From Nannocystis bainbridge (GTDB lineage Bacteria; Myxococcota_A; Polyangia; Nannocystales; Nannocystaceae): a stretch of DNA of 64,000 nucleotides. A program made the position numbers and the translations under genes. Under the pieces are notes generated by a model that was not told the DNA's origin, did not search any database, and saw only the letters and a program-made list of their open reading frames with translations. Positions within the stretch are counted from its first letter, which is position 1; each line of letters starts with the position of its first letter. Shown here one piece after another: positions 29,618 to 42,600 of the stretch. The DNA is taken from the NCBI RefSeq assembly GCF_028368995.1, contig NZ_JAQNDL010000005.1, forward strand, positions 192,001-256,000, written 5' to 3'.

Positions 29618-31087
29618 GTGACCGCCGAGCTCAACCTGTCCTCTTCGCCATCTGGTTTCGTCTCCGCCCGGTCGGGCGGCCTCGAATTCGACGTCGTCGT
29701 GCTCGGCTCCGGCCCCGGCGGCGAGGGGGCCGCCATGCTGGCGGCCAAGGCCGGCCGGCGCGTCGCCCTCGTCGAGCGGTACCGGGCGGTCGGCGGCGCC
29801 TGCACCCACCTCGGCACGATCCCCAGCAAGGCCCTGCGCGAGGCCGTGCGCACGCTGAAGAGCGTGCGCCAGAACCCCATGTTCGCCGACCTCGTCGCCG
29901 GCCACGTCGTCACCTTCCCCCAGCTCCTCACCGGCGCCCGGCGGATCATCGACAGCCAGGTCGAGCTGCGGCGCAGCTTCTATCACCGCAACCACGTCGA
30001 GGTCTTCACCGGCCACGCCCGCTTCGTCGACCCGCACACCGTCGAGATCGAGGAGCCCGGCGGCGCCCGCCCGCGCCTGCGCGCCGGCGGCTTCGTCATC
30101 GCCACCGGCTCGCGCCCGTATCGACCGCCGGACGTCGACTTCACGCACCCGCGGATCTTCGACAGCGACACCATCCTCGGCCTCGGCGTCCACGGCCGCG
30201 AGCGCGTCCCGCAGTCGATCACCATCTACGGCGCCGGCGTCGTCGGCTGCGAGTACGCCTCGATCTTCCGCGGCCTCGAGATGAAGGTCAATCTCGTCAA
30301 CAACCGCGACAAGCTGCTCGCCTTCCTCGACGACGAGATCATCGACGCGCTCTCGTACCACCTGCGCGACCAGGGCGTGCTGATCCGCCACAACGAGACC
30401 TACGAGCGCATCGAGCCCCAGCCTGACGGCGTCGTCGTCCACCTCAAGTCGGGCAAGCGGCTGCGCTCCGACATCCTGCTGTGGGCCAACGGTCGCACCG
30501 GCAACACCCAGGACATGGGCCTCGAGGCGATCGGCATCCAGCCCAACGGCCGCGGCCAGATCGACGTCGACGACGTCTACCGCACCCGCATCCACCCGCA
30601 CGTCTACGCCGTCGGCGACGTCGTCGGCCCCCCGAGCCTCGCCTCCGCCGCTTACGATCAGGGCCGCTTCGCCATGACCCACCTGATCCACGGCGAGTGC
30701 GACGCCCGGCTCGTCAAGGACATCCCGACCGGCATCTACACCGATCCCGAGATCAGCTCGGTCGGCCGCACCGAGCGCGAGCTGACCCAGGACGGCGTGC
30801 CCTACGAGGTCGGCCACGCCCTGTTCCGCAACCTCGCCCGCGCCCAGATCACCGGCATGCGCGTCGGCGTGCTCAAGCTGCTGTTCCACCGCGAGACCCT
30901 GCAGATCCTCGGCGTCCACTGCTTCGGCGATCAGGCCGCCGAGATCATCCACATCGGCCAGGCGATCATGGCCCAGAGCGGCGAGGCCAACAACCTGCGC
31001 TACTTCATCAACACCACCTTCAACTATCCGACGATGGCCGAGGCCTACCGGGTCGCCGCCCTCAACGGCTACAACCGCGTGTTCTAG
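29618..31087 (+). CDS. sthA: Soluble pyridine nucleotide transhydrogenase
   Basis: [52 protein letters not shown]. Confidence 0.95.
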
Positions 31088-31117
31088 GCCCGGCGCTTCG
31101 TCGGCAGAGGTCGCGCC

Positions 31118-32572
31118 CTACTTGCCGAGCTTGTACGCCTTCGACTTCGACTTCTTGCCGTAGATCTTCGCCTGCTCCGCGCTCTGACGGGCCGCGTCGA
31201 GGCCGGACTCGGCCTCCTTGAGCTCCTCGATCTGCTTGACCAGCTTCGGGCTCGGCGTCGCCTTGTGCTGCTTCTCGAGCGCGACCACGCCGTCCTGCAG
31301 CACCTTGCGCGCCCGGTCGTAGTCGCCGCCGTCGACCGCCACCGCCGCCGCTTGCATCTGCGCCGCGCTCTCGACCTCGGCCACGCGGACCGTCACCTCC
31401 GTGCGCTCCGAGCGGGCGATCTGCTCCGGATCGGTGCTGGTCGGGGCCGACAGCGCCAGCTTGCCCTCGACCGGCTTCCCCTGCTGGGTCTGGTCCTTGG
31501 CCCGCAGGTCGACCGTGCCCAGCGCCAGCTGTCCGCTCGCACCTGTCCCGAAGTTCACCTGCAACCGGACCACGATGTCGCGCACCTGCTGGGCCGCCAG
31601 CGAGCCGACCAGGATCGACGCGCCCTGCGGCGTCTCCTGCCAGGCGTAGCCATACACCTGGCGCACCTGGACCCCCGGCGCCATCTGCATCGTCACCTCG
31701 ATCCCCGACGCCACCGTCGCCACCAGCCCGGCGAACTCGTCCGACAGCACCCGCGGGATCGCGTCGGTGCCGGGGATGAAGTGATAGCGCCCGCCGCCCT
31801 GGTCGGCGAGCCGCGTCATCAGCTCCTCGTTGTAGTCGAGCCCGACCCCCAGCGTCGACACGCTGACCCCGTGGCCGAAGCCCTCGCGCGCCCGCTGCCC
31901 GAGCACCTGCGGGTTCTGCTCGCCGACGTTGGCCTGGCCGTCGGACAGCAGCAGCATGTGGCGCAACACATCCTCTTTGCGGGTCTTCGGGTCGAAGATC
32001 TCGAACCCGCGGTACAGCGCCGGCCCCAACGCCGTGCCGCCGCGGGTGTCGAGTCCCAGCACCACCGCGCGCGCCGTCTTGAGGCCGGCCTCGTCGACCA
32101 GCATGCGGTCGGTCATCACCTCGACGTCGCTGTCGTAGGCGATGAGCGACAGCCGATCCTGCGGCTTCAGCTCCTTCAGCAGATCGAGGGTCGCCTGTTT
32201 GACCGCGAGCAACTTCTCGCCGGCCATGCTGCCCGAGCGATCGAGCACCACCGCGAGGTCGAGCGGCGGCCGCTCGCCGGTGACCTCGCCCATGCCGCGC
32301 AGCCGCAACAACAGCTGGAGGTCGAGCGTGCCGGTGCGGCGGTCGAGCACCTCGAATTGTGGCAACACCTCGAGCTGCACCGAGCCCGAGGTCGTCACCC
32401 AGCCGAGCCCGCCCGGCACCGGCGCCTCGGCCTGGATCGGCTGCTCCGCCGCTTCGCTCGCCGGCACCTCGCGCCTGGGCTCGACCAGTCCCTTGCCTGT
32501 ACATCCGCCCGTGACGAACAACGCGAGCATCGTGAACACGGGGACCAGCGAGGACGGGCGCGGCGAGGGCAT
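31118..32572 (-). CDS. vWA domain lipoprotein (YfbK-like)
   Basis: Lipobox-like [34 protein letters not shown]. Confidence 0.88.
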
Positions 32573-32791
32573 CGTCGCCTGCAACGCCGCCGCGGCTCGC
32601 CGGTTCTGATCGACGATCGAAGCGCGACGATCCGCGGCTTCGATCTCTCCGATCCCCACGCTTCACGCCGCGATCGCTCGTCCTCACGAACGACGCTGCG
32701 CGGCTCGAATTCGCGCCACCGCGCGACGTATGACAGGCTGTCCCTTCGGACATCTGATTCGCGAGCCCACGAACCACGCTACCCTCCGCGC

Positions 32792-33259
32792 GTGCCGGTC
32801 CGACTCGTCGCCCTCCTCGCCCTGCTGGTCCTCGGATGCGCTCACAGCCCGCCCCCACCCGCGGGACCGCGCGTGCTGGCCGGCAGCGCGCAGATTCAGC
32901 GGGCCGAGGCGACCGTCGAGCTGACGCTGCGCTACCAGGTGCGCGAGGGTTCGGCGCTCGAGATCTCGGGCGAGCTGCGCGGCGGCGGCAGCGGCAGCGT
33001 CGGCGCCGTCGCCGTCGAGCTCCGCCCCGAAGGCTTCGAGCTCGCCGACCCGCCGATCTGGACCGCCGAGGTCGCCGCTGGCGAGGCCGCGAGCCACACC
33101 TGGAAGCTGCGCCCGCTGGCCGAGGGCATCGCCCGCATCGAGGTCCGCCACGGCCTCGCCGGCGGCGACCTCGACGGCAGCACCACCGCCGCCTTCCGCG
33201 TCGACGCCGACGCGATCCGCCTGTGCGCCACCGCCGACTGCGCCGGCGAGGCGCCCTGA
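32792..33259 (+). CDS. Small lipoprotein
   Basis: GTG start, LLALLVLGC lipobox. Confidence 0.7.
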   Translation: MPVRLVALLALLVLGCAHSPPPPAGPRVLAGSAQIQRAEATVELTLRYQVREGSALEISGELRGGGSGSVGAVAVELRPEGFELADPPIWTAEVAAGEAASHTWKLRPLAEGIARIEVRHGLAGGDLDGSTTAAFRVDADAIRLCATADCAGEAP

Positions 33260-33353
33260 GCGGGCCCCGGCCGCGAGTTCACGAAGCGAGATCGCGCAGG
33301 GAGTTTTCCCGGGGCCGGTCTGTTATCCTGTCGGAGTCGGGGACCCCAGAGTC

Positions 33354-34070
33354 ATGACTGAACAACGCGAGTACGCCGCCCGAACCAATCTTCACGCGTT
33401 TTATTCTCACAGTCAGCTCTTGATCGTCGCCGAGGGCGAGCTGCCGTCGACCGAGTACGAGATCGACATCGGCCACCAGGCCGGCGAGTCCATCCCGACC
33501 TTCGCCCTCACGCATCGCGCTCGCCCGACCGCCGTCGATGCGCCGCCCAAGGCCACGCCGTTCCGCTACGGCGAGATCTTCAGCATCGGTCGCCCGCCGG
33601 ACGTCATCCGCGTGCGCCACAAAGAGGGCCTCGACGACGTCAACGTCGAGTTCACCCGCGACGACCTCGTCGACATCGTCCTCAGCCTCAGCGGCGGCGA
33701 CGTCGAGGTCACCCTGCCCGACGCCGACGCCGACACCGGCGCATCGATCCCCCCGCCCCCGCCGTCGGGCTTCGACACGCACCCGCCCCCGCGCGAGAGC
33801 TCGGCCCCGGTCGAGTCGCGGCCGCTGACCGCCAGCGAGAAGGCCGGCATCCTCGGCGACATCGCCGTCCGCTACCGCGAGTCGATCGGCTACTCGAACA
33901 AGCTCTCGTTCGACGAGGCCTTCGCCGACGCGCTCAAGAAGCTGCCGCCGCCGTCGGTCAAGTTCCCCGACATGCTCGAGACGGTCGAGGTCGTGCAGAT
34001 CGGCGCGAGCTTCGGCGGCATCGCCGGCTTCCGCCGCCTCGAGGTCCGGATCCGCGCCTACCCGGATTGA
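33354..34070 (+). CDS. Hypothetical two-domain protein (C-terminal domain weakly dodecin-like)
   Basis: Good GC3 bias; Pro-rich linker; ESIGYSNKLSFDEAFADAL. Confidence 0.75.
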   Translation: MTEQREYAARTNLHAFYSHSQLLIVAEGELPSTEYEIDIGHQAGESIPTFALTHRARPTAVDAPPKATPFRYGEIFSIGRPPDVIRVRHKEGLDDVNVEFTRDDLVDIVLSLSGGDVEVTLPDADADTGASIPPPPPSGFDTHPPPRESSAPVESRPLTASEKAGILGDIAVRYRESIGYSNKLSFDEAFADALKKLPPPSVKFPDMLETVEVVQIGASFGGIAGFRRLEVRIRAYPD

Positions 34071-34144
34071 CCTGCTTGCATCTGCACCCGCCGCGCGAAA
34101 AGGGGTGCTTCCCAAGCTCCGCGGCCCTGTGGTAGGAACCAGTT

Positions 34145-34423
34145 CGTGCCTTGTGATTCCGTGACAGGAGGGCAGGTCTAGCTCGCTGCTCTGCAGCGGG
34201 GCGGCGTTGCGCCGCCCGAGCGTCTTCCCCACCATCCATCACAAGGAAGGCTATTCCAGAACGTCGCTGATCGTCCGTAGCCCATACGGGCCGCGACGGG
34301 CTGGTTCAACCTCGCCGATCGTGGTTCCGTGCGCGGCCCGTATGGGCTACGGACGGCGAGTTCAGTGAGCCTTCCATGTCCCAGGTCTTGAGGTAGATCC
34401 TCCTTCACAAATCACGATGCACG
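34145..34423 (+). ncRNA. Retron msr-msd non-coding unit, copy 1 (Mx162-type msDNA)
   Basis: a1/a2 imperfect inverted repeat 34145-34180/34394-34423; candidate branch G 34181; msr hairpins including GCGGCGTTGCGCCGC; perfect 24-bp msd stem 34272-34295/34332-34355. Confidence 0.8.
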
Positions 34424-34462
34424 GATGGCCGAGGCGCGACAGCTCCTCGGCCATCGCTTTTT
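34424..34462 (+). terminator. Intrinsic terminator between the two retron ncRNA copies
   Basis: gatggccgagg/cctcggccatc 11-bp stem followed by gcTTTTT. Confidence 0.7.
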
Positions 34463-34479
34463 CTGGTACTGTCCTCTTC

Positions 34480-34750
34480 GTGCTGCGCGTGTGCGAAGGA
34501 GGTCAGGTCTAGCTCGGTGCTCTGCACCGGGGCGGCGTTGCGCCGCCCGAGCGTTCTGCACGTCATTCGTCACAAGGAAGGCTGTTCCAGGATTCACTGA
34601 TCGCCGAGGTACCGGTCGCATCGCGACGGGCTGGTCCAACCTCGCCGATCGAGGTTCCGTGCGCGATGCGACCGGTACCTCGGCGGTGAATCCAGTGAGC
34701 CTTCCATGTCCCAGGTCATGAGGTAGAAAGCTCCTCGCCGCGCACGGCAC
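34480..34750 (+). ncRNA. Retron msr-msd non-coding unit, copy 2 (Mx162-type msDNA)
   Basis: a1/a2 34480-34511/34724-34750; candidate branch G 34512; same msr hairpins; perfect 24-bp stem 34602-34625/34662-34685; predicted msDNA about 165 nt (34558-34722, minus strand). Confidence 0.8.
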
Positions 34751-34752
34751 AT

Positions 34753-34807
34753 GCGGCCCCGACGACCTCCCCGCCGCTCGCGGGAGGCCCTCGGGGCCGC
34801 GGCTTTT
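34753..34807 (+). terminator. Terminator-like hairpin after copy 2
   Basis: gcggccccga...tcggggccgc stem followed by ggcTTTT. Confidence 0.5.
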
Positions 34808-34874
34808 GGGTCGCTGCGTGCGCCCCTGCCCGCGTTCGCTTGACATCCCGGCGCATCGGTCCGATGCCAGATCC

Positions 34875-35840
34875 ATGGGTACCGCCACCCACTCGCGGCC
34901 TCCGCGAGAACGCGCCCGACGCGCTCTACGCGTCGCTCTCGTCCTCAACCTCGCGTTCCTCGGGCTCGAGACGGTCTTCGCGTTCCTCAGCGGCTCCCTG
35001 GCCCTGCTGTCCGACGCGGCGCACATGGTCAGCGACGTCGCGGCCCTCGGGCTGGCCCTGCTCGCCGCCGAGTTCGCCCTGCGCCCGGCCGTCCAGGGCC
35101 GCACCTACGGGTTCGCCCGCGCCGAGGCCCTCGGCGCCTTCGCCAACGCCCTGTTCCTCGCGTTCGCCTGCGCCCTCATCGTCCACAGCGCGATCGGCCG
35201 CCTCAGCACCGGCGACACTCACTTCGAGCCCGAGCCCGTGCTGGTGGTCGGCACCGCCGGCCTCGTCGTCAACCTCGCCTCGGCCTGGTACCTCGCGCGC
35301 AGCGGCGGCGACAACCTCAACATCCGCGGCGCGCTCATCCACATGCTGGCCGACGCGCTCGGCTCGCTCGGGGCGATCGTCGCCGCCGTGCTCGCCTCGA
35401 CCTGGGCGATCCACGCCGCCGACTCGATCCTCAGCCTGGGCATCGCCGTCCTGGTCCTCTTCAGCGCCTGGGGCGTGCTGCGCGACGCGACCCGGGCCCT
35501 CCTCGATTTCGCCCCGACCCACCTCCCGCAGGAGCGCGTCGAGGCCGAGCTGCGCGCCGTGGCCGGGCTGTCGGAGATCCACGAGCTCCACCTGTGGAGC
35601 ATCGGCGGCTCGCCGGTGCTCACCGCCCACCTGGTCCCGCAGCCCGGGGTGGCCCCCGGCGACCTGCTGGCCCGCGCCGAGCACGTCCTGCGCGAGCACC
35701 TCGGCGTCGTCCACACGACCCTGCAGATCGACGACCCCGGCCCGTGCGCGCAGCGGCGCTGCCCGCTGTTCGACGAGCAGCTGGCGAAGATCCACACCCA
35801 CGGTCACGCGCACGGTCACGGTCACGGCCACGCGCACTGA
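34875..35840 (+). CDS. Cation diffusion facilitator (CzcD/ZitB-like) transporter
   Basis: SLALLSDAAHMVSD, LNIRGALIHMLADALGS, HELHLW, His-rich tail. Confidence 0.95.
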   Translation: MGTATHSRPPRERARRALRVALVLNLAFLGLETVFAFLSGSLALLSDAAHMVSDVAALGLALLAAEFALRPAVQGRTYGFARAEALGAFANALFLAFACALIVHSAIGRLSTGDTHFEPEPVLVVGTAGLVVNLASAWYLARSGGDNLNIRGALIHMLADALGSLGAIVAAVLASTWAIHAADSILSLGIAVLVLFSAWGVLRDATRALLDFAPTHLPQERVEAELRAVAGLSEIHELHLWSIGGSPVLTAHLVPQPGVAPGDLLARAEHVLREHLGVVHTTLQIDDPGPCAQRRCPLFDEQLAKIHTHGHAHGHGHGHAH

Positions 35841-35888
35841 CGGGCCTGCCGAGCGGGGCACGACACCGCGAGAGGTGCCCGACCGTCG

Positions 35889-36060
35889 CCTGTCCCGCAG
35901 GACACATTGAGAACATGTCCTGAGGGACAGGCCACGACTTCGCGCCGCGGTCACCGGCCTCAGAGGACGTGGGACATCATCACCTGTCCCGCAGGACAGG
36001 CTATCGTCATGTCCTCCGGGACAGGCCCGCGGCGTCGCGCCGCCACCTGTCCCGAAGGTC
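35889..36060. repeat. Cluster of CMTGTCC-N4-GGACAKG dyads
   Basis: Dyads starting at 35889, 35914, 35983, 36008. Confidence 0.75.
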
Positions 36061-36069
36061 ACGCCCTGC

Positions 36070-36972
36070 CTAGAACCCGATCTGCTTGCACGTGCAGCCG
36101 GCCACGTCCGGCCCGCACTGCGTCGGCGGGGCCGGGTTGTCGGCGCTGACCGACAGCGGGATGTAGCGGTCGGGCGACTGCGCGTGGCCGTCGATGCGCG
36201 TCCACACGTCTGCCGACGGCTCGAGCGCGTTGACGGCGGTCGCGTCCGCGTTGGTGATGAAGGGGACCACCAGCTTGTCGTCGGGGTAGCCGAAGCTCTT
36301 GAGGCCCTCGCTGAGGCCGTAGTGCGGGCCGATGTACTTGCAGCCGGCCTGGTCGAACTTGGCGAACACGTCGCTCGGGCAGTTGCTGCCGGTCGCCTCG
36401 CGGTAGTACTGCAGGAACGCGATCTCGCAGCCGACGCCGCCCGAGCAGCGGACCAGGTAGCGCCACCCGGTCTTCTTCGGATCGATGCAAGGATGGACGC
36501 ACGGGTTCCAGCTGATCGGCAGGCCGTCGCCCGGGCGCAGCTTGTCGGCGTAGCAGACCTCGCCGCGGAAGAACGGCAGCACGAAGGTCGGGAGGTCGCC
36601 CTCGCCCATCCCCGTGCAGTCCTCGGGCGCCTCGCAGGTCGCGGGCGGCCCGGTGGTCGCCGTCGGGTCCCAGCCCGTCGTCTCGGTCGTCGGCCCGCTC
36701 GTCGAGGTCGTCGCGTCGGTCCCGCCCGAGTTGCTGTCGCTCATGCTGCCCTCGGAGCTGGTGGTCGGCGCCGCCGTGGTCGTCGGCACGTCGGCCGTCG
36801 TCGATTCGGTGCCCGTCGCGCCGGTCGCGTCGGTCTCGGTCCCCGTGATCGAGGCTGACTCCGACGCCGTGTTGAGGGCGGCGGTCACCATCTCGTAGTT
36901 GTCCTGGCAGCCGGCCGCGAACGCGAGCGCGGAGAGCCAGGCCGTACGCAGCCAAAGCTGAGACATGGGCAT
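36070..36972 (-). CDS. Cys-rich lipoprotein with Thr/Ser-rich linker
   Basis: LAFAAGC lipobox, T/S/G low-complexity linker, Cys-rich C-terminal domain. Confidence 0.8.
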   Translation of the reverse strand: MPMSQLWLRTAWLSALAFAAGCQDNYEMVTAALNTASESASITGTETDATGATGTESTTADVPTTTAAPTTSSEGSMSDSNSGGTDATTSTSGPTTETTGWDPTATTGPPATCEAPEDCTGMGEGDLPTFVLPFFRGEVCYADKLRPGDGLPISWNPCVHPCIDPKKTGWRYLVRCSGGVGCEIAFLQYYREATGSNCPSDVFAKFDQAGCKYIGPHYGLSEGLKSFGYPDDKLVVPFITNADATAVNALEPSADVWTRIDGHAQSPDRYIPLSVSADNPAPPTQCGPDVAGCTCKQIGF

Positions 36973-37128
36973 GCCGAGCAGTGTAGAGGCTCGCCGGGCC
37001 GCGGGCGACATCTCGGCCGCGCGGCCTGCGCCGCTGCAGGGGGGCACGTGGCCCCGCGCACGGGCATCGCGCCCGCGGCGCCCGCATCGCCGCTCGCGCC
37101 CGGCCCGCGGGTTCGGCAAGCTTCGCGC

Positions 37129-38121
37129 ATGTTCGACCTGCGCATGTGGTTTCGAGCGCTGCAGATCATCCCGCGGCTCGGCAAAGACGAGTGGGACCGC
37201 CTCGACGTCGTAAGTCGCTGGCTCATCGCCACCCGCGCCGCCGTGTTCGTCATGACCATCGTGTCCGCCGGCATCGGCGGGATCCTGGCCGCGCGGGACG
37301 GTCAATTCTCCGGCCTCAACTTCCTCGCCTGCCTGATCGGCCTGGTGTTCGCCCACGCCACCAACAACCTCGTCAACGACCTCACCGATCACCTGCAGGG
37401 CGTCGACAAGGGCAACTACTTCCGCGCCCAGTACGGCCCGCAGCCGCTCGAGCACGGCCTCATGAGCGTGCGCGACGTGCTCCGCTACACCGCCATCACC
37501 GGCGCGATCGCCCTCGCCGCCGGCGTGTGGCTGATCGCCGCCACCGGCACCACCGCGCTCGGTCTCATGCTCGCCGGCGTCTTCTTCGTGCTGTTCTACA
37601 CCTGGCCCTTGAAACACATCGGCCTCGGCGAGCCGACCGTGCTGCTGGTGTGGGGCCCCTTGATGGTCGGCGGCACGTACCTGTGCACCGCCGGGCAGTG
37701 GAGCTGGGACGCCGCGCTGATCGGCACCGCCTACGCGCTCGGGCCGACCGCGGTGCTGTTCGGCAAGCACACCGACAAGCTCCCGGCCGACCGCGCCAAG
37801 GGCATCTTCACCTTGCCGGTGCTGCTCGGCGAGCCGCTCGCGCGCCGCTGCGTCACCGTCATGCTGGCCGCGCAGCTGGTCGCCGTGCTCGCCCTCGTAT
37901 GGCGCGGCGCGCTCGGCTGGCCGCTGCTGATCGTGCTCGCCGCCGTGCCGATGCTGCGCGACACCGCCGCCGTGTTCGCGCGCCCGCGGCCCGACACCTG
38001 CCCGCCCGAGTTCCCCAAGCACATCTGGCCGACCTACCTGGTCGCCTATGCCTTCCGCTACAACCGCCGCTTCGGCCTGCTGTTCCTGCTCGGCCTGCTG
38101 ATCGAGCTGGCGCTGTCTTAA
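37129..38121 (+). CDS. menA: UbiA/MenA family prenyltransferase
   Basis: NNLVNDLTDHLQGVD, FYTWPLKHIGLGE, DKLPADRAKGIFTLPV. Confidence 0.75.
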   Translation: MFDLRMWFRALQIIPRLGKDEWDRLDVVSRWLIATRAAVFVMTIVSAGIGGILAARDGQFSGLNFLACLIGLVFAHATNNLVNDLTDHLQGVDKGNYFRAQYGPQPLEHGLMSVRDVLRYTAITGAIALAAGVWLIAATGTTALGLMLAGVFFVLFYTWPLKHIGLGEPTVLLVWGPLMVGGTYLCTAGQWSWDAALIGTAYALGPTAVLFGKHTDKLPADRAKGIFTLPVLLGEPLARRCVTVMLAAQLVAVLALVWRGALGWPLLIVLAAVPMLRDTAAVFARPRPDTCPPEFPKHIWPTYLVAYAFRYNRRFGLLFLLGLLIELALS

Positions 38122-38226
38122 GTAAAAAGACGCCCGCCGAAAGCACGAAGGGCCGAAGCCATCGCGGAGGATGGCTTCAGCCCTTTGGGAAGCGCGGTGA
38201 CCGGTAGCACCCGGTCGCGCGGCGGC

Positions 38227-38694
38227 TCACTTCGGAGCGGGCTCGGCGGGCGCGGCGGCAGCGGGCGCAGCGGGCGCCGCAGAGCCGGTCGACGGCGTGC
38301 AGATCGGCGCCTCGGTCCCGTTCTCCGTGACCTTGTTGGCGACCCCGTAGCAGCCCCACACCACCTCGAGCTCGCGGCACGAGCCCGGGTTGAGCTCGAT
38401 GAACTTCGCGGCCCGCTGGCGCGCCTCGGGCGACTGGCCGATGTTGGGGCCCACCCACTGGAGCTGCAGCCGACCGAGGATCTCCTTCGTCAGGCCGACA
38501 TTGATGCTCTCGCGCGCGGCCGCGTTGGTGACGCATTGGTTGTAGTCGACGATGTTCTGCAGCACGCAGACATTCCCCTCCGACAACACGTAGCCCGACT
38601 CACAACCTCCCGGGCTCTTCGTTTTGTCGCCCTTGCAGGCGACGGCGGACAGGGCGGCAGAGCTCAGGGCGAGGACGGCGAGGATACGGAGCAT
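38227..38694 (-). CDS. Lipoprotein
   Basis: MLRILAVLALSSAALSAVAC lipobox. Confidence 0.75.
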   Translation of the reverse strand: MLRILAVLALSSAALSAVACKGDKTKSPGGCESGYVLSEGNVCVLQNIVDYNQCVTNAAARESINVGLTKEILGRLQLQWVGPNIGQSPEARQRAAKFIELNPGSCRELEVVWGCYGVANKVTENGTEAPICTPSTGSAAPAAPAAAAPAEPAPK

Positions 38695-38821
38695 GGGGGG
38701 AGCCTCTTCGTTGCGGCCGATTGTATGCCACAGGGGTCCGCGCGCCGCACGAAATTCGCCGGACCGGGGAAAAATGCCACCGCGATCGCGTATAACCGCG
38801 TCCCGGGCTATCTTTGCGGCC

Positions 38822-39511
38822 ATGAGCGAGCCTTCCGACCTGTACTTCCGTCAAGTGCCGATCGGGCCGATGGGCAACTTCATCTACTTCATCGGCAGCC
38901 GCGCCACGCGGACCTGCGTGGTCGTCGACCCGGCCTGGGACACCGACGCGCTGATCCGGCTGGCCGAGGCCGACGACATGAAGATCGTCGGGGCGCTCGT
39001 CACTCACTATCACCCGGACCATTGCGGCGGCGGGATGATGGGGTTCAACGTCCCCGGCGGCGTCGCCGAGCTCATCGGTCGCGTCGACGCCCGCATCCAC
39101 GTGCACAAGCTCGAGGCCGACGGGCTCAAGCAGGTCACCGGCGTCAGCGAGGCCGACCTCGTGCGCCGCGAGGGCGGCGATCGGCTCGCGCTCGGCGACG
39201 TCGAGCTCACGTTCATTCACACACCTGGCCACACCCCGGGCAGTCAGTGCTTCTTCGTCCGCGATCGCCTGGTCGCCGGCGACACTCTGTTCGTCGACGG
39301 CTGCGGGCGCGTCGACCTCCCGGGCGGCGACGCCCAGCAGATGTACGAGAGCCTCACCGGGCCGCTGGCCGCGCTGAGCGACGACGTCGTCCTTTACCCC
39401 GGCCACAACTACGGCCCGACCCCCACCAGCCCGCTGGGTACGCAACGGAAGACCAACCGCTACTTGCGGATCCGCTCGCGCGACGACTGGCGGCGGCTGA
39501 TGGGTCGCTGA
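38822..39511 (+). CDS. MBL-fold hydrolase (glyoxalase II-like)
   Basis: THYHPDH, HTPGHTPGS, GDTLFVDGCGR, PGHNY. Confidence 0.92.
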   Translation: MSEPSDLYFRQVPIGPMGNFIYFIGSRATRTCVVVDPAWDTDALIRLAEADDMKIVGALVTHYHPDHCGGGMMGFNVPGGVAELIGRVDARIHVHKLEADGLKQVTGVSEADLVRREGGDRLALGDVELTFIHTPGHTPGSQCFFVRDRLVAGDTLFVDGCGRVDLPGGDAQQMYESLTGPLAALSDDVVLYPGHNYGPTPTSPLGTQRKTNRYLRIRSRDDWRRLMGR

Positions 39512-39607
39512 CGCGAGCGACGGCGCGCGATGGCCGACGCGGCGCCTCGTTGTACGATCCCCGTCCGCGGCCTCGGGTTGTCGCGTCGGCTTGGGTAGGA
39601 TGGGCGC

Positions 39608-42600
39608 GTGAACGTACAACCTTACGGCCGACCCGGAGATCGCCGCGTCTACCCTCGGGTGGCGTGCACGCTCGTGTGCACCGTCGCCAACGTCGGCAAC
39701 GGTCGCGTCCTCAACGTCTCCGACGGTGGGGCCTTCGTCGCCCTGCCCGACCAGCACGCGCACTTGCCGAGCCCGTTGCACCTGTCGGTGCCGCTGCTCG
39801 GCAGCGACCAGGTCGTCGACGTCGTAGCACGTGTCGTCCGCGTGGCCGCACTGTCGCCCCATGGCCTCGGGATCGGCCTGCAGTTCCAGGACCTCAGCGA
39901 GGGCGCGGCCGAGCAGATCCACCGGTACGTCCTCGGTCGTCTGCTCGCGGAGATCGCGGAGATCATGGAGGAGCAGCCGCGTCACATCGACCCGCGCAAC
40001 GTGCAGGTCGTGAGCGGCGTCGCCTCGGTCGCCGGCACCTTGCGCGACATGATCGCCGAGGGTCCCGTGCCCGGCATGTTGTTTCAGCGCGACGTCGGCG
40101 AGCTCGTCGACCTGCAGCTGTTCCAGGTCAGCAGCGCCGCGATCCTCGTCCAGCTGCGCGACCCCGCGGCGCGCCTGCCGGCCGTCGGCGATCACGTCCA
40201 CCTCACCTTGACGCGCGGCACATTCAACGCCCACGCGCACTCGCAGGTGCTCGACCGCAGCGGCGCCCGCGTCACGCTCGAGGTGCCGGCCAACCTCACC
40301 CGCTTCGAGCTGCGGCGCTCGCAGCGGCGCTCGCCCGGCCCGCAGGAGATGTTCGTCTCGATCCCGCTGCCGTATCCCCCGGGCAGGAAGCTGCGGCGCG
40401 AGGTGCTCGACATCTCCGCCACCGGCCTCGCCTTTCGCATGCGGCCCGACGAGGCGCTGCTGCTGCCCGGCACCCCGCTGCGCGAGGTCGTCGTCAGCGG
40501 CGCCAACGGCGACGGCGAGACCCGCAAGACCGGCCAGGTCATGCACGTCACCCCGGTCGAGGGCGACGCCGGCGCCATCGAGTTCCTGCGCATCGGCCTC
40601 GACTTCGGCATCGCCGACGAGGCCTTCACCAAGGGCGTGCGCCCGCGCGGCGCCGCCGAGAAGAAGTCGCTCGGCTTCGTCGAGAAGATGGGCCTCTTGA
40701 TCGGCCGGCTCATCCCGCGCAAGGCTCCGCCGCCGAGCGGGCCCGGGGCCAGCGGCGTCGAGGTCGTGCGCTACCCCAACCGCCGGCGCGAGGACATCGT
40801 CGCCATCCTCAACACCACCCCGCGCGGTGACGGGCGCAAGCTGCTCGCGCCGGTGATCATCATCCCGCCCGCCCACTCGAAGCGCAAGGAGTCGACCTCG
40901 GGCCTCGCGCTCACCCTGCTCGAGAACTTCGCCCGCCGCCGCCAGGACGTGGTCGTGCTGCGCTTCGACGGCGTGCGCAACCTCGGCGAGAGCTACAAGG
41001 ATCCCGACTGTCGCGAGCACGGGCGCGAGGCCATGCGCATGTCGCTGTCGCAGGCCGTCGACGACATCCAGGCCACCCTCGACTACGTCTACGACAACCC
41101 GATCTTCTCGCCGACCCAGGTCGTGCTGGTCTCGTTCAGCCTGCAGGGCGTCGTCGGTCGCCGCGCCGTGTGGAACGACCGGGGCAAGCGCATCCACTAC
41201 TGGCTCGGCATCAACGGCGCGCCTGCGGCTCAGGAGGTCATCCGCAACGCCTCCGGCGGCGTCGACTACGTGTCGCAGCACGCCAGCGGCAAGCTCAGCG
41301 GCGTCGCCAACATCCTCGGCGTCACCGGCGACATCGACCACTTCTGCGCCGACCTGTTGCGCGAGGGCCTCGCCTTCATGGCCGACGCCAAGCGCGAGAT
41401 CGCCGAGATCCCGGTCCCCGTGACCTGGTTGCTCGGGCGCTACGACGCGTGGATCGATCCTTCCACGATCCGGGAGTTCATGGCCGTCGACGCCCCCGGC
41501 GCGCGCGAGCTGGTCGAGCTCGACTGCGGTCACATGCCGCTGTCGAGCGTCGAGGCGCTGACCCTGTTCCACACCGCCGTGAAGCAGATCTGGCGGTTCC
41601 TGTTCCGCGAGGAGATCGACCCGATCACCCCCGACCCGCGCGAGCTGGTGCGCGCCCGCAACGCCGAGTGGCGGCGCGTGCCGAAGAGCCCGCTGCCCGA
41701 CCGGCGCCGCTACTGGCACGAGTACCTGCTCGGCGACAGCAGCTCCAAGCTCGCCTACGACGTCCTCAACGCCTGCGACGAGTACAACGAGTTCATCGAG
41801 CGCGAGCTCGAGCTGCTCGACGTGCGCGCCGACCACGTCGTCTGCGACCTCGGCTGCGGCACCGGCAACCTCTCCGCCCGGCTGCTGCGGCGTCGCGGGG
41901 CGCGCGGCCGGCCGCCGTGCGCGCGCTTGAACCTCGTCGATTTCGTGCCCGGCGCGCTCGACGAGGCCGAGCGCAAGCTCCGCGCCCTGGCCGAAGAGCG
42001 CGGGCTCGCGCTGCCCGAGGTCGCGCGGCACTGCGTCAACATCGACATCAGCCCGGTGCGGACGCTCCGGCGCTTCCTCGCCGGCGAGCTCTACGGCTAC
42101 GACGCGCTCCGGGGCATCATCAAGGGCCTCACGGGCTACTCGATCGACATGTGGAAGGCAGCGGAGGACTGGCGGCTGCACGACGTCTTGCGCGGGCGGG
42201 AGCTCGACAAGCAGGACCTCGCGTACCTCGCCGCCGCCTTGCCGGCCGACGAGCAGGACGTCGTCCTCGACTTCAACCGCATGACCCGCTGGCTGCGCGG
42301 CCGGCTCGGCCCGCAGGACCTGCTGCGCGACGCCCGGGCCCGGTTCGAGCGCGGCCAGGCCCCGGCGATCGACGAGCTGCAGCTCGCCCGCCTGTCCATT
42401 CGGCCAGGTGACCAGGTCGAGCGCCTGCCGTTCGCCGACGCCACCTTCGACCGCGTCGCCTGCAGCCTGGTGCTCAGCTACCTCAGCAATCCGATCGAGG
42501 TGCTGCGCGAGCTCCACCGCGTCGTCAAGCCGGGCGGGCGGATCGTCGTGTCGACGATGCAGCCCGACTTCGACATGAGCCGGATCTATCAAAACCTGCT

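Follow-up and report, generated by a model that had tools for sequence, protein, structure and literature searches.

Retron RNAs are described in a review of the field (PMC6868368) as having paired ends, a motif with the priming G, short msr hairpins and a long msd hairpin. The described retrons closest to the locus studied here are those of the type XIII reverse transcriptase (RT) clade, which is formed by Mx162, Mx65 and Ne144; in the account of Mestre et al. (2020; PMC7736814), the gene set of this type has HEAT-repeat and SWIM genes upstream of the RT gene, and the retrons track host phylogeny. For Mx162, the review gives CAGC as the motif (PMC6868368). The same review describes Retron-Nex1 (Ne160) of N. 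exedens, which has several duplicated msr-msd repeats and no RT within a kilobase (Lampson and Rice, 1997, as cited there), and attributes to papers of 1997 and 2002 the observation of msDNA-like chromosomal repeats and a partial msDNA copy in N. exedens, with possible retrotransposition (PMC6868368). Tandem msr-msd arrays have also been engineered: the 'multitrons', derived from an E. coli retron, serve in genome editing (PMC10370050).

Tandem units in the window

In this study, we analyzed a 64,000-nt stretch of the Nannocystis bainbridge genome (hereafter the window). Two head-to-tail units of about 240 nt each were found on the + strand (34156-34420 and 34486-34750), next to an ORF without a Pfam family and a cation-efflux gene and with a gene for an lpd-like oxidoreductase further upstream. 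They share direct-repeat blocks of 94, 44 and 44 nt at a spacing of 331/330 nt, with a copy-to-copy identity of 87-95%. Each unit contains an inverted repeat whose 24-nt arms are 100% complementary and lie 36 nt apart (34272-34295/34332-34355 in unit 1 and 34602-34625/34662-34685 in unit 2). The 5' arms of the two units differ at 13 of 24 positions, and the 36-nt apical parts at only 2 of 36. These repeat and inverted-repeat analyses confirm what a previous sequence-only reading of the region had described, namely a near-constant scaffold with a different but perfect 24-bp stem in each of two msd copies; its span (34259-34693) took in only the msd parts, and the whole units extend further on both sides. 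The predicted folds were -167.4 kcal/mol for unit 1 (z -9.7) and -197.9 kcal/mol for unit 2 (z -9.1), and none of 100 shuffled sequences reached the same value in either case. The features of the two units are as follows.

34156-34180, +: unit 1 a1 arm, which forms the 5' side of the closing duplex and has TCTA at its end; pairs with 34394-34417 (-19.4 versus a shuffled mean of -13.5 kcal/mol)
34181, +: unit 1 predicted priming (branching) G of TAGC; TAGC directly follows a1, from which the branch point is predicted
34184-34217, +: unit 1 two msr hairpins, CGCTGC-TCT-GCAGCG and GGGCGGCG-TTG-CGCCGCCC; consensus fold of 31 units
34240-34271, +: unit 1 lower msd stem, conserved 5' side (scaffold); helices 1 and 2 of the covariation count
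34272-34295, +: unit 1 variable stem, 5' arm, 24 nt; inverted repeat, covariation
34296-34331, +: unit 1 constant 36-nt apical part, four conserved pairs with a bulged G and then a small hairpin; 0-5 of 36 positions different among close genomes
34332-34355, +: unit 1 variable stem, 3' arm; 100% complementary to 34272-34295
34356-34393, +: unit 1 lower stem, conserved 3' side, which includes CCCAGGTC (34380-34387) and ends immediately 5' of a2, where cDNA synthesis is predicted to start; covariation, fragment ends
34394-34417, +: unit 1 a2 arm, beginning TAGATCCTCC; pairing with a1
34424-34463, +: unit 1 probable terminator, GC-rich hairpin followed by TTTTT; inverted repeat I6 and sequence, not called by the consensus scan
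34486-34511, +: unit 2 a1 arm, unlike that of unit 1 in sequence; pairs with 34724-34748 (-23.3 versus -15.7 kcal/mol)
34512, +: unit 2 predicted priming G of TAGC; from motif position, as in unit 1
34515-34548, +: unit 2 two msr hairpins; fold and consensus
34571-34601, +: unit 2 msd stem, 5' scaffold; covariation
34602-34625, +: unit 2 variable stem, 5' arm; inverted repeat
34626-34661, +: unit 2 constant apical part; inverted repeat, 2 of 36 positions different from unit 1
34662-34685, +: unit 2 variable stem, 3' arm; inverted repeat
34686-34723, +: unit 2 3' scaffold; covariation
34724-34748, +: unit 2 a2 arm; pairing with a1
34753-34810, +: unit 2 probable terminator, GC-rich hairpin followed by TTTT; inverted repeat I4 and sequence, not called by the consensus scan

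A consensus scan for promoters (including sigma-70) and terminators gave no calls. It was also observed that TGGTA, 8 nt and TTCGTGC lie at equal spacing 5' of both units (34130-34165 and 34463-34496), and this may be a shared promoter element. An Rfam scan of 30000-40000 returned chance-level matches to microRNA families alone (24-32 bits against gathering scores of 70-100). The msr family RF00170 had no match in the whole genome at E values up to 1, which says little, as the control search was positive in 0 of 14 genomes.

Distribution of the units and conservation of the stem

Homologous units were searched for at the DNA level in 73 genomes of the family, including that of the window. Full units were present in 26 genomes and 4 of 17 genera: the genus of the window (g1; 9 of 10 genomes besides the window's own), g11 (4 of 5), g12 (7 of 7) and g16 (5 of 11). 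A genome usually carries two copies and at most four. From 49 extracted profile matches, 46 units of the four genera could be parsed.

The closing duplex is a general property of these units. The a1 and a2 arms vary in sequence from unit to unit yet stay complementary, and the last base of the duplex directly precedes the G of TAGC. In 45 of 48 rows the duplex exceeded the shuffled mean in stability, two rows being mis-anchored by the search pattern, and it reached 20 pairs or more in some loci (L050, L048 and L053). All 31 aligned units have AGC, in the form TAGC or, in genus g16, TTAGC/TCAGC. The consensus fold of the same 31 units also contains two msr hairpins with compensated changes (pairs 34/45, 50/66, 51/65 and 52/64 were doubly changed in 2-5 sequences). 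The order of elements is therefore that of a retron RNA: closing a1/a2 arms (about 8-30 nt in retrons), (T/C)AGC 3' of a1, msr hairpins (1-3 in retrons) and then a long msd hairpin. An adjacent RT, a further hallmark, is absent from the window units and present beside their homologues in g16, g15, g2 and Myxococcaceae (see below). Taken together, the a1/a2 arms, the AGC, the msr hairpins and the RT adjacency of homologues bear out the earlier suggestion that the repeats are retron msd copies, and, judging from sequence, the units are msr-msd genes of the Mx162 family, type XIII. Pxr, 6S and Y RNAs, mobile-element guide RNAs and att-site duplicates of an RNA gene were considered as candidates and dropped because of the a1/a2 and TAGC anatomy and the RT adjacency in relatives.

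The variable stem was flawlessly Watson-Crick paired in 44 of the 46 parsed units (24 bp in 34 units, 29 bp in 8 and 30 bp in 2); the other two had one single mismatch and one indel, respectively. For a covariation count, we aligned 21 units with 24-bp stems and took the variable stem together with the four constant pairs above it (28 pairs). Both sides were changed in 22 of the 28 pairs, changes on one side only were never seen, and 99.8% of cells (587/588) were paired. All 213 changed cells were double changes, including many transversion swaps (GC to CG), which cannot go via a wobble intermediate. The covariation score was 0.501, compared with 0.123 in shuffled alignments (0 of 500 reached 0.501) and 0.057-0.074 when the 3' partners were slid by 1-3 columns. 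Among the same 21 sequences, lower helix 1 was nearly invariant, and the neighbouring lower helix 2 had 5 of 8 pairs changed on both sides with 99.4% of cells paired, so the covariation previously claimed for the neighbouring helix holds over the homologous units as well. The pairing and length of the variable stem are thus strictly kept and its sequence is free, as the sequence-only reading had proposed from two copies. Within the stem, there is little variation at positions 1-3 and 21-24, and the sequence of the centre is free. The 29-bp run of genus g16 consists of the 24 pairs plus the four conserved pairs and the bulge above, and the distance from lower stem to apical loop is therefore kept there too. 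In one genome with four units (G059), all four stems differ, and there are no or almost no differences in the loops and 3' scaffolds.

It should be noted that no G-U pair occurred among the 587 paired cells of the variable helix, which argues that the DNA hairpin rather than the RNA must pair. According to the review, msDNA with a mismatched stem raises mutation rates via MutS titration and msDNA with a fully complementary stem does not (PMC6868368). The lack of G-U/G-T pairs points either to selection on the DNA form, in which a mismatched multicopy hairpin titrates MutS, or to copying from arm to arm.

RT genes and their arrangement

No RT gene is present in the 64,000-nt window. The genome has five RVT_1 matches: three identical group II intron-type proteins with a maturase domain (L013, L014 and L015 on contigs C1, C2 and C3) and two non-intron RTs (L016 and L017). 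PADLOC assigns both non-intron RTs to RT_XIII (E = 4.6e-186 for L016 and 3.1e-159 for L017). The L017 RT gene (G000:C1:3253748-3255046) lies on a contig other than that of the units and is the last gene of a HEAT-repeat/SWIM/RT operon. A 1345-aa ORF of this operon matches HEAT_2 (E = 9.4e-44), and the 642-aa ORF beside the RT gene scores 17 bits for SWIM, below the cut-off of 19.6, yet a CxCx12CxH motif is readable in it. This SWIM-motif ORF abuts the RT gene, and the upstream space is too small for an RNA gene. The ORF beside L016 scores 24.7 bits for SWIM. Both the RT clade and the HEAT/SWIM gene set of type XIII were thus found in this genome. None of the units occurs within about 6-7 kb on either side of the L016 and L017 RT genes.

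The L016 RT has its own canonical msr-msd upstream, which is unrelated in sequence to the window units. This second type XIII retron (L016/L107; G000:C1:2364000-2376000) consists of a large ORF, a SWIM ORF, an msr-msd with 19-nt a1/a2 arms and CCTAGC, and a 517-aa RT. It may correspond to the published Ne144.

Several arrangements were observed for the relatives of the L017 RT. Its orthologues in g16 have homologous arrays of 2-4 units directly downstream, and those in g15 and g2 have a single unit directly upstream. In Myxococcaceae, a single unit lies directly upstream of the RT gene in 27 of 29 loci (profile matches of 50-66 bits), and the M. xanthus RT is 51% identical to the L017 RT over its full length versus 47% over part of the length to L016. 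By contrast with these RT-linked units, among 31 loci whose RT shares 64% or more identity with the L017 RT, none has a unit within 2.5 kb, which indicates that in this clade the RNA genes have become separated from the RT gene. All 10 other genomes of the genus retain an intact RT operon, and RTs 97-98% identical to the L017 RT occur in Nannocystis exedens, pusilla, punicea and radixulma. In g11 (L048 and L050), two or three units, about 3 kb apart and not in tandem, flank a gene for an lpd-like oxidoreductase and an ORF without a Pfam family. As the same lpd-like gene is found upstream in the window, this points to a conserved chromosomal position.

Divergence of the stem

According to the sequence-only reading, the duplex sequence diversifies under selection as a sensor repertoire, and neutral paired sites were named as the standard against which the stems should be compared. 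We used third codon positions for this purpose. In five close genomes, only 2 changes were found in 240 arm positions, in the form of one compensated pair set in one genome, versus 11-15% different third codon positions in the upstream ORF. Between two further genomes (G053 and G054), the arms of one stem were identical (0/29) and those of the other had 5/29 positions different (5/58 in total), versus 19% of the third positions of the RT gene. Deeper within the genus, arm differences were 6% (G044), 33% (G040) and 35% (G042) versus 23-30% for third positions. The loop and scaffold were nearly invariant in all these comparisons. Measured against third codon positions, the stems therefore diverged no faster than expected, and the proposed diversification under selection was not supported. 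On these rates, the stem sequence is free but its divergence no faster than that of third codon positions, and the two copies are old paralogues. Considering the deep arm divergence (33-35% versus 23-30%) and the early saturation of third positions at this GC content, a mild acceleration of the stem may exist.

The sequence-only reading had also suggested that targets of the stems be looked for in phage and host DNA. The msd had no match in 50,697 phage records, and the variable arms matched nothing in their own genome besides msd fragments.

Dispersed msd fragments

Partial matches to the units are scattered through the large genomes of the genus. For unit 2, 41 of 42 fall inside unit positions 78-231, which is the msd part; the remaining one is a weak match in msr. 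This restriction to the msd is indirect evidence of the RT-dependent production of branched, RNA-linked msDNA that characterizes retrons. In the genome of the window, such fragments lie at C1:725768-725827, C1:3879060-3879120, C1:1154788-1154847, about C1:1547849-1547925, C2:867074-867136 and C2:1810524-1810564, and in sister genomes at loci L003-L005, L009 and L085-L104. Many of these fragments stop at CCCAGGTC or at most 3 bases later, 3-6 nt before a2 (equivalent to 34382-34390), and two start at the first bases of the msd stem.

We scored 26 fragments against the native unit and against a unit with the loop reverse-complemented. The loop-flipped form was better in 12 fragments, the native form in 2 and either in 12, so that 12 of 14 informative fragments were flipped. 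In the flipped form, the inverted loop is preceded by a few 5'-arm bases and followed by the 3' arm and then the 3' scaffold. We infer that such fragments represent the expected 3' half of a snapped-back and filled-in msDNA hairpin, which a plain gene fragment or cDNA would not give. The empty sites of 20 sister-genome fragments were sought in the genome of the window; many flanks were present, the intervening DNA differed in a complex manner, and no clean insertion with target-site features was seen.

Two further observations were made on these sequences. The palindrome GGACATGTCC lies near several fragments and was considered as a fragment-specific motif, but it was rejected as it is common genome-wide (956 occurrences in the genome of the window versus 9.5 expected from base composition). 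In addition, an end-to-end mosaic of both variable arms is present at L108:3581-3632 (G000:C1:4343581-4343632), with 16 of 16 nt of unit 2 followed by 17 of 18 and 14 of 15 nt of unit 1, within a cluster of TGTTCCACGTGAAA repeats.

Occurrence in public sequencing runs

Twenty public sequencing runs contain part of the stretch, and six of them are RNA libraries. Contigs of two RNA runs cover 34199-34383 with no differences and 34525-34714 with three differences, and adapter letters directly adjoin 34167 in such contigs. Thus, the units are present in RNA libraries. The RNA runs have no cover at 34412-34489 and 34750-34850, whereas both DNA runs compared with them cover every bin; the first gap is a weak hint of the unit 1 terminator. 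All four runs were compared as assembled contigs and the RNA evidence comes from environmental (metatranscriptome) runs, which means that transcript ends, strand and msDNA cannot be read from them and that DNA may be present.

Proposed mechanism and alternative explanations

Our preferred explanation, to which we give a probability of about 0.72, is that the repeats are separate msr-msd RNA genes of the Mx162-family type XIII retron, that their RT is encoded elsewhere and that the 24-bp stem is a spacer of fixed length and free sequence. Each RNA would be transcribed from the + strand and closed by its own a1/a2 duplex. The conserved msr hairpins would be the binding site of the L017 RT and the 2'-OH of G34181 or G34512 its primer, and the msd part (about 34237-34393 and 34568-34723) would be copied to a ssDNA of ~155-160 nt with the same hairpin fold. 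The lower stem and the apical loop would be the parts read by protein, with the 24-bp stem as a spacer between them that requires length and perfect Watson-Crick pairing and leaves the sequence free. A stem with these properties would drift by always-compensated changes, and old paralogues would come to have different stems. Priming alone would explain why all units keep their own a1/a2 arms and AGC context. The spacer role itself leaves the retention of 2-4 different copies in several genera unexplained.

In a diversified sensor or decoy repertoire, the msDNA stems would be distinct dsDNA ligands, each for another DNA-binding or DNA-modifying protein of phage or host, and an array of 2-4 units would widen sensing. 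Four genera have kept arrays of 2-4 units whose stems differ, G059 has four different stems under identical or nearly identical loops and 3' scaffolds, and some other retrons start their defence when a phage protein modifies or binds the msDNA. We nevertheless regard such a repertoire as rather unlikely, considering the slow change of the arms relative to third codon positions among close genomes, the identity of one of the two orthologous stems in G053 and G054, and the failure of the msd to match phage records and of the arms to match anything but msd fragments in their own genome. The locus also lies in conserved chromosomal synteny beside the lpd-like gene and not in a defence island, and inheritance of type XIII retrons is reported to follow host phylogeny (PMC7736814). 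It could also be supposed that the units are stand-alone structured small RNAs of retron descent which are no longer reverse transcribed and whose stem acts as RNA, for example as a dsRNA substrate. The separation of units and RT, seen in this genus and in all 31 related loci with an RT identity of 64% or more, a terminator-like hairpin for each unit and the abundance of the units in RNA libraries would all fit this possibility. It is, in our view, very improbable, as every unit has retained a1/a2 and the AGC context, the complete lack of G-U pairs is unexpected under selection at the RNA level, msd-only copies, many of them loop-inverted, are dispersed in the genomes, and the RT operon has stayed intact in the 10 other genomes of the genus.

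The remaining alternatives concern the origin of the perfect pairing and of the fragments. Pairing might be kept mainly by mutational copying between the arms, either by template switching in the palindrome at replication or by recombination of snapped-back cDNA with the gene. That 213 of 213 changed cells are double changes with many GC-to-CG swaps, that defects were caught in only 2 of 46 units and that filled-in hairpin DNA exists or existed, as suggested by 12 of 14 informative fragments, all favor this process; the same data fit strong selection against mismatches, and a bulge or mismatch in the same stem of three Myxococcaceae homologues suggests that such correction is not universal. 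We consider copying as the main cause improbable, although it concerns how pairing is kept and is compatible with our preferred explanation. A more far-reaching proposal, which we likewise hold to be a long shot, is that the fragments are captured msDNA: a snapped-back, filled-in hairpin would be opened near the loop and captured by the SWIM protein of the retron, the type XIII retron would insert DNA or have done so until recently, and the perfect, fast-compensated stem would be a by-product of this hairpin chemistry as it feeds back into the gene. Such hairpin capture would explain why 12 of 14 informative fragments have the loop inverted relative to the 3' scaffold, and the SWIM protein has been likened to DEDE transposases in published analysis.

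The element in the window is an ordinary representative of the retron family that has been known longest and not a new kind of element, and it provides a natural case in which one RT apparently serves several unlinked template RNAs, kept across several genera. For Mx162-type retrons, our data separate the fixed parts of the msd (lower stem, apical loop, stem length and strict Watson-Crick pairing) from the free ones (~17 central stem pairs), and such a map should be useful for engineering this retron type. The sequences of the chromosomal msDNA-like copies are relevant to whether retrons can retrotranspose, a question of long standing.

Comparison with known systems

Like the multitrons, the locus combines tandem msr-msd units of differing msd content with one RT that is possibly supplied separately (PMC10370050). 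Unlike them, it is a natural array, in which a stem and not a donor sequence varies; the account of multitrons that we draw on (PMC10370050) names no natural array.

Retron-Mxa1 (Mx162) of M. xanthus has a homologous ncRNA, since the Myxococcaceae units in 27 of 29 loci match the profile with 50-66 bits, and an RT 51% identical to the L017 RT. Locus L162 is taken to be Mx162, judging by the organism and the CAGC motif. The shared features are considerable: the M. xanthus unit carries CAGC, as reported for Mx162 (PMC6868368), and, as in Mx162 and type XIII generally, the RT gene is preceded by HEAT-repeat and SWIM genes and inheritance goes with the host (PMC7736814). On the other hand, Mx162 has one ncRNA directly upstream of its RT gene, whereas two copies lie here on a contig other than that of the RT, and the three Myxococcaceae units that were folded have a bulge or mismatch in the stem that is perfect in 44 of 46 units here.

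The closest likeness is to Retron-Nex1, which also has repeated msr-msd, no nearby RT and chromosomal msDNA-like repeats according to its description (PMC6868368). Its name, Ne160, fits the msDNA length predicted here (about 155-160 nt). Considering this fit, the description of Ne160 in the review and the RTs 97-98% identical in other Nannocystis species, the element is probably already known and of the Retron-Nex1 (Ne160) type, as far as the description in PMC6868368 allows the comparison. Our analysis extends that description by a likely cognate RT, a series of arrangements across genera, statistics on the perfect stem and the fragments with an inverted loop.
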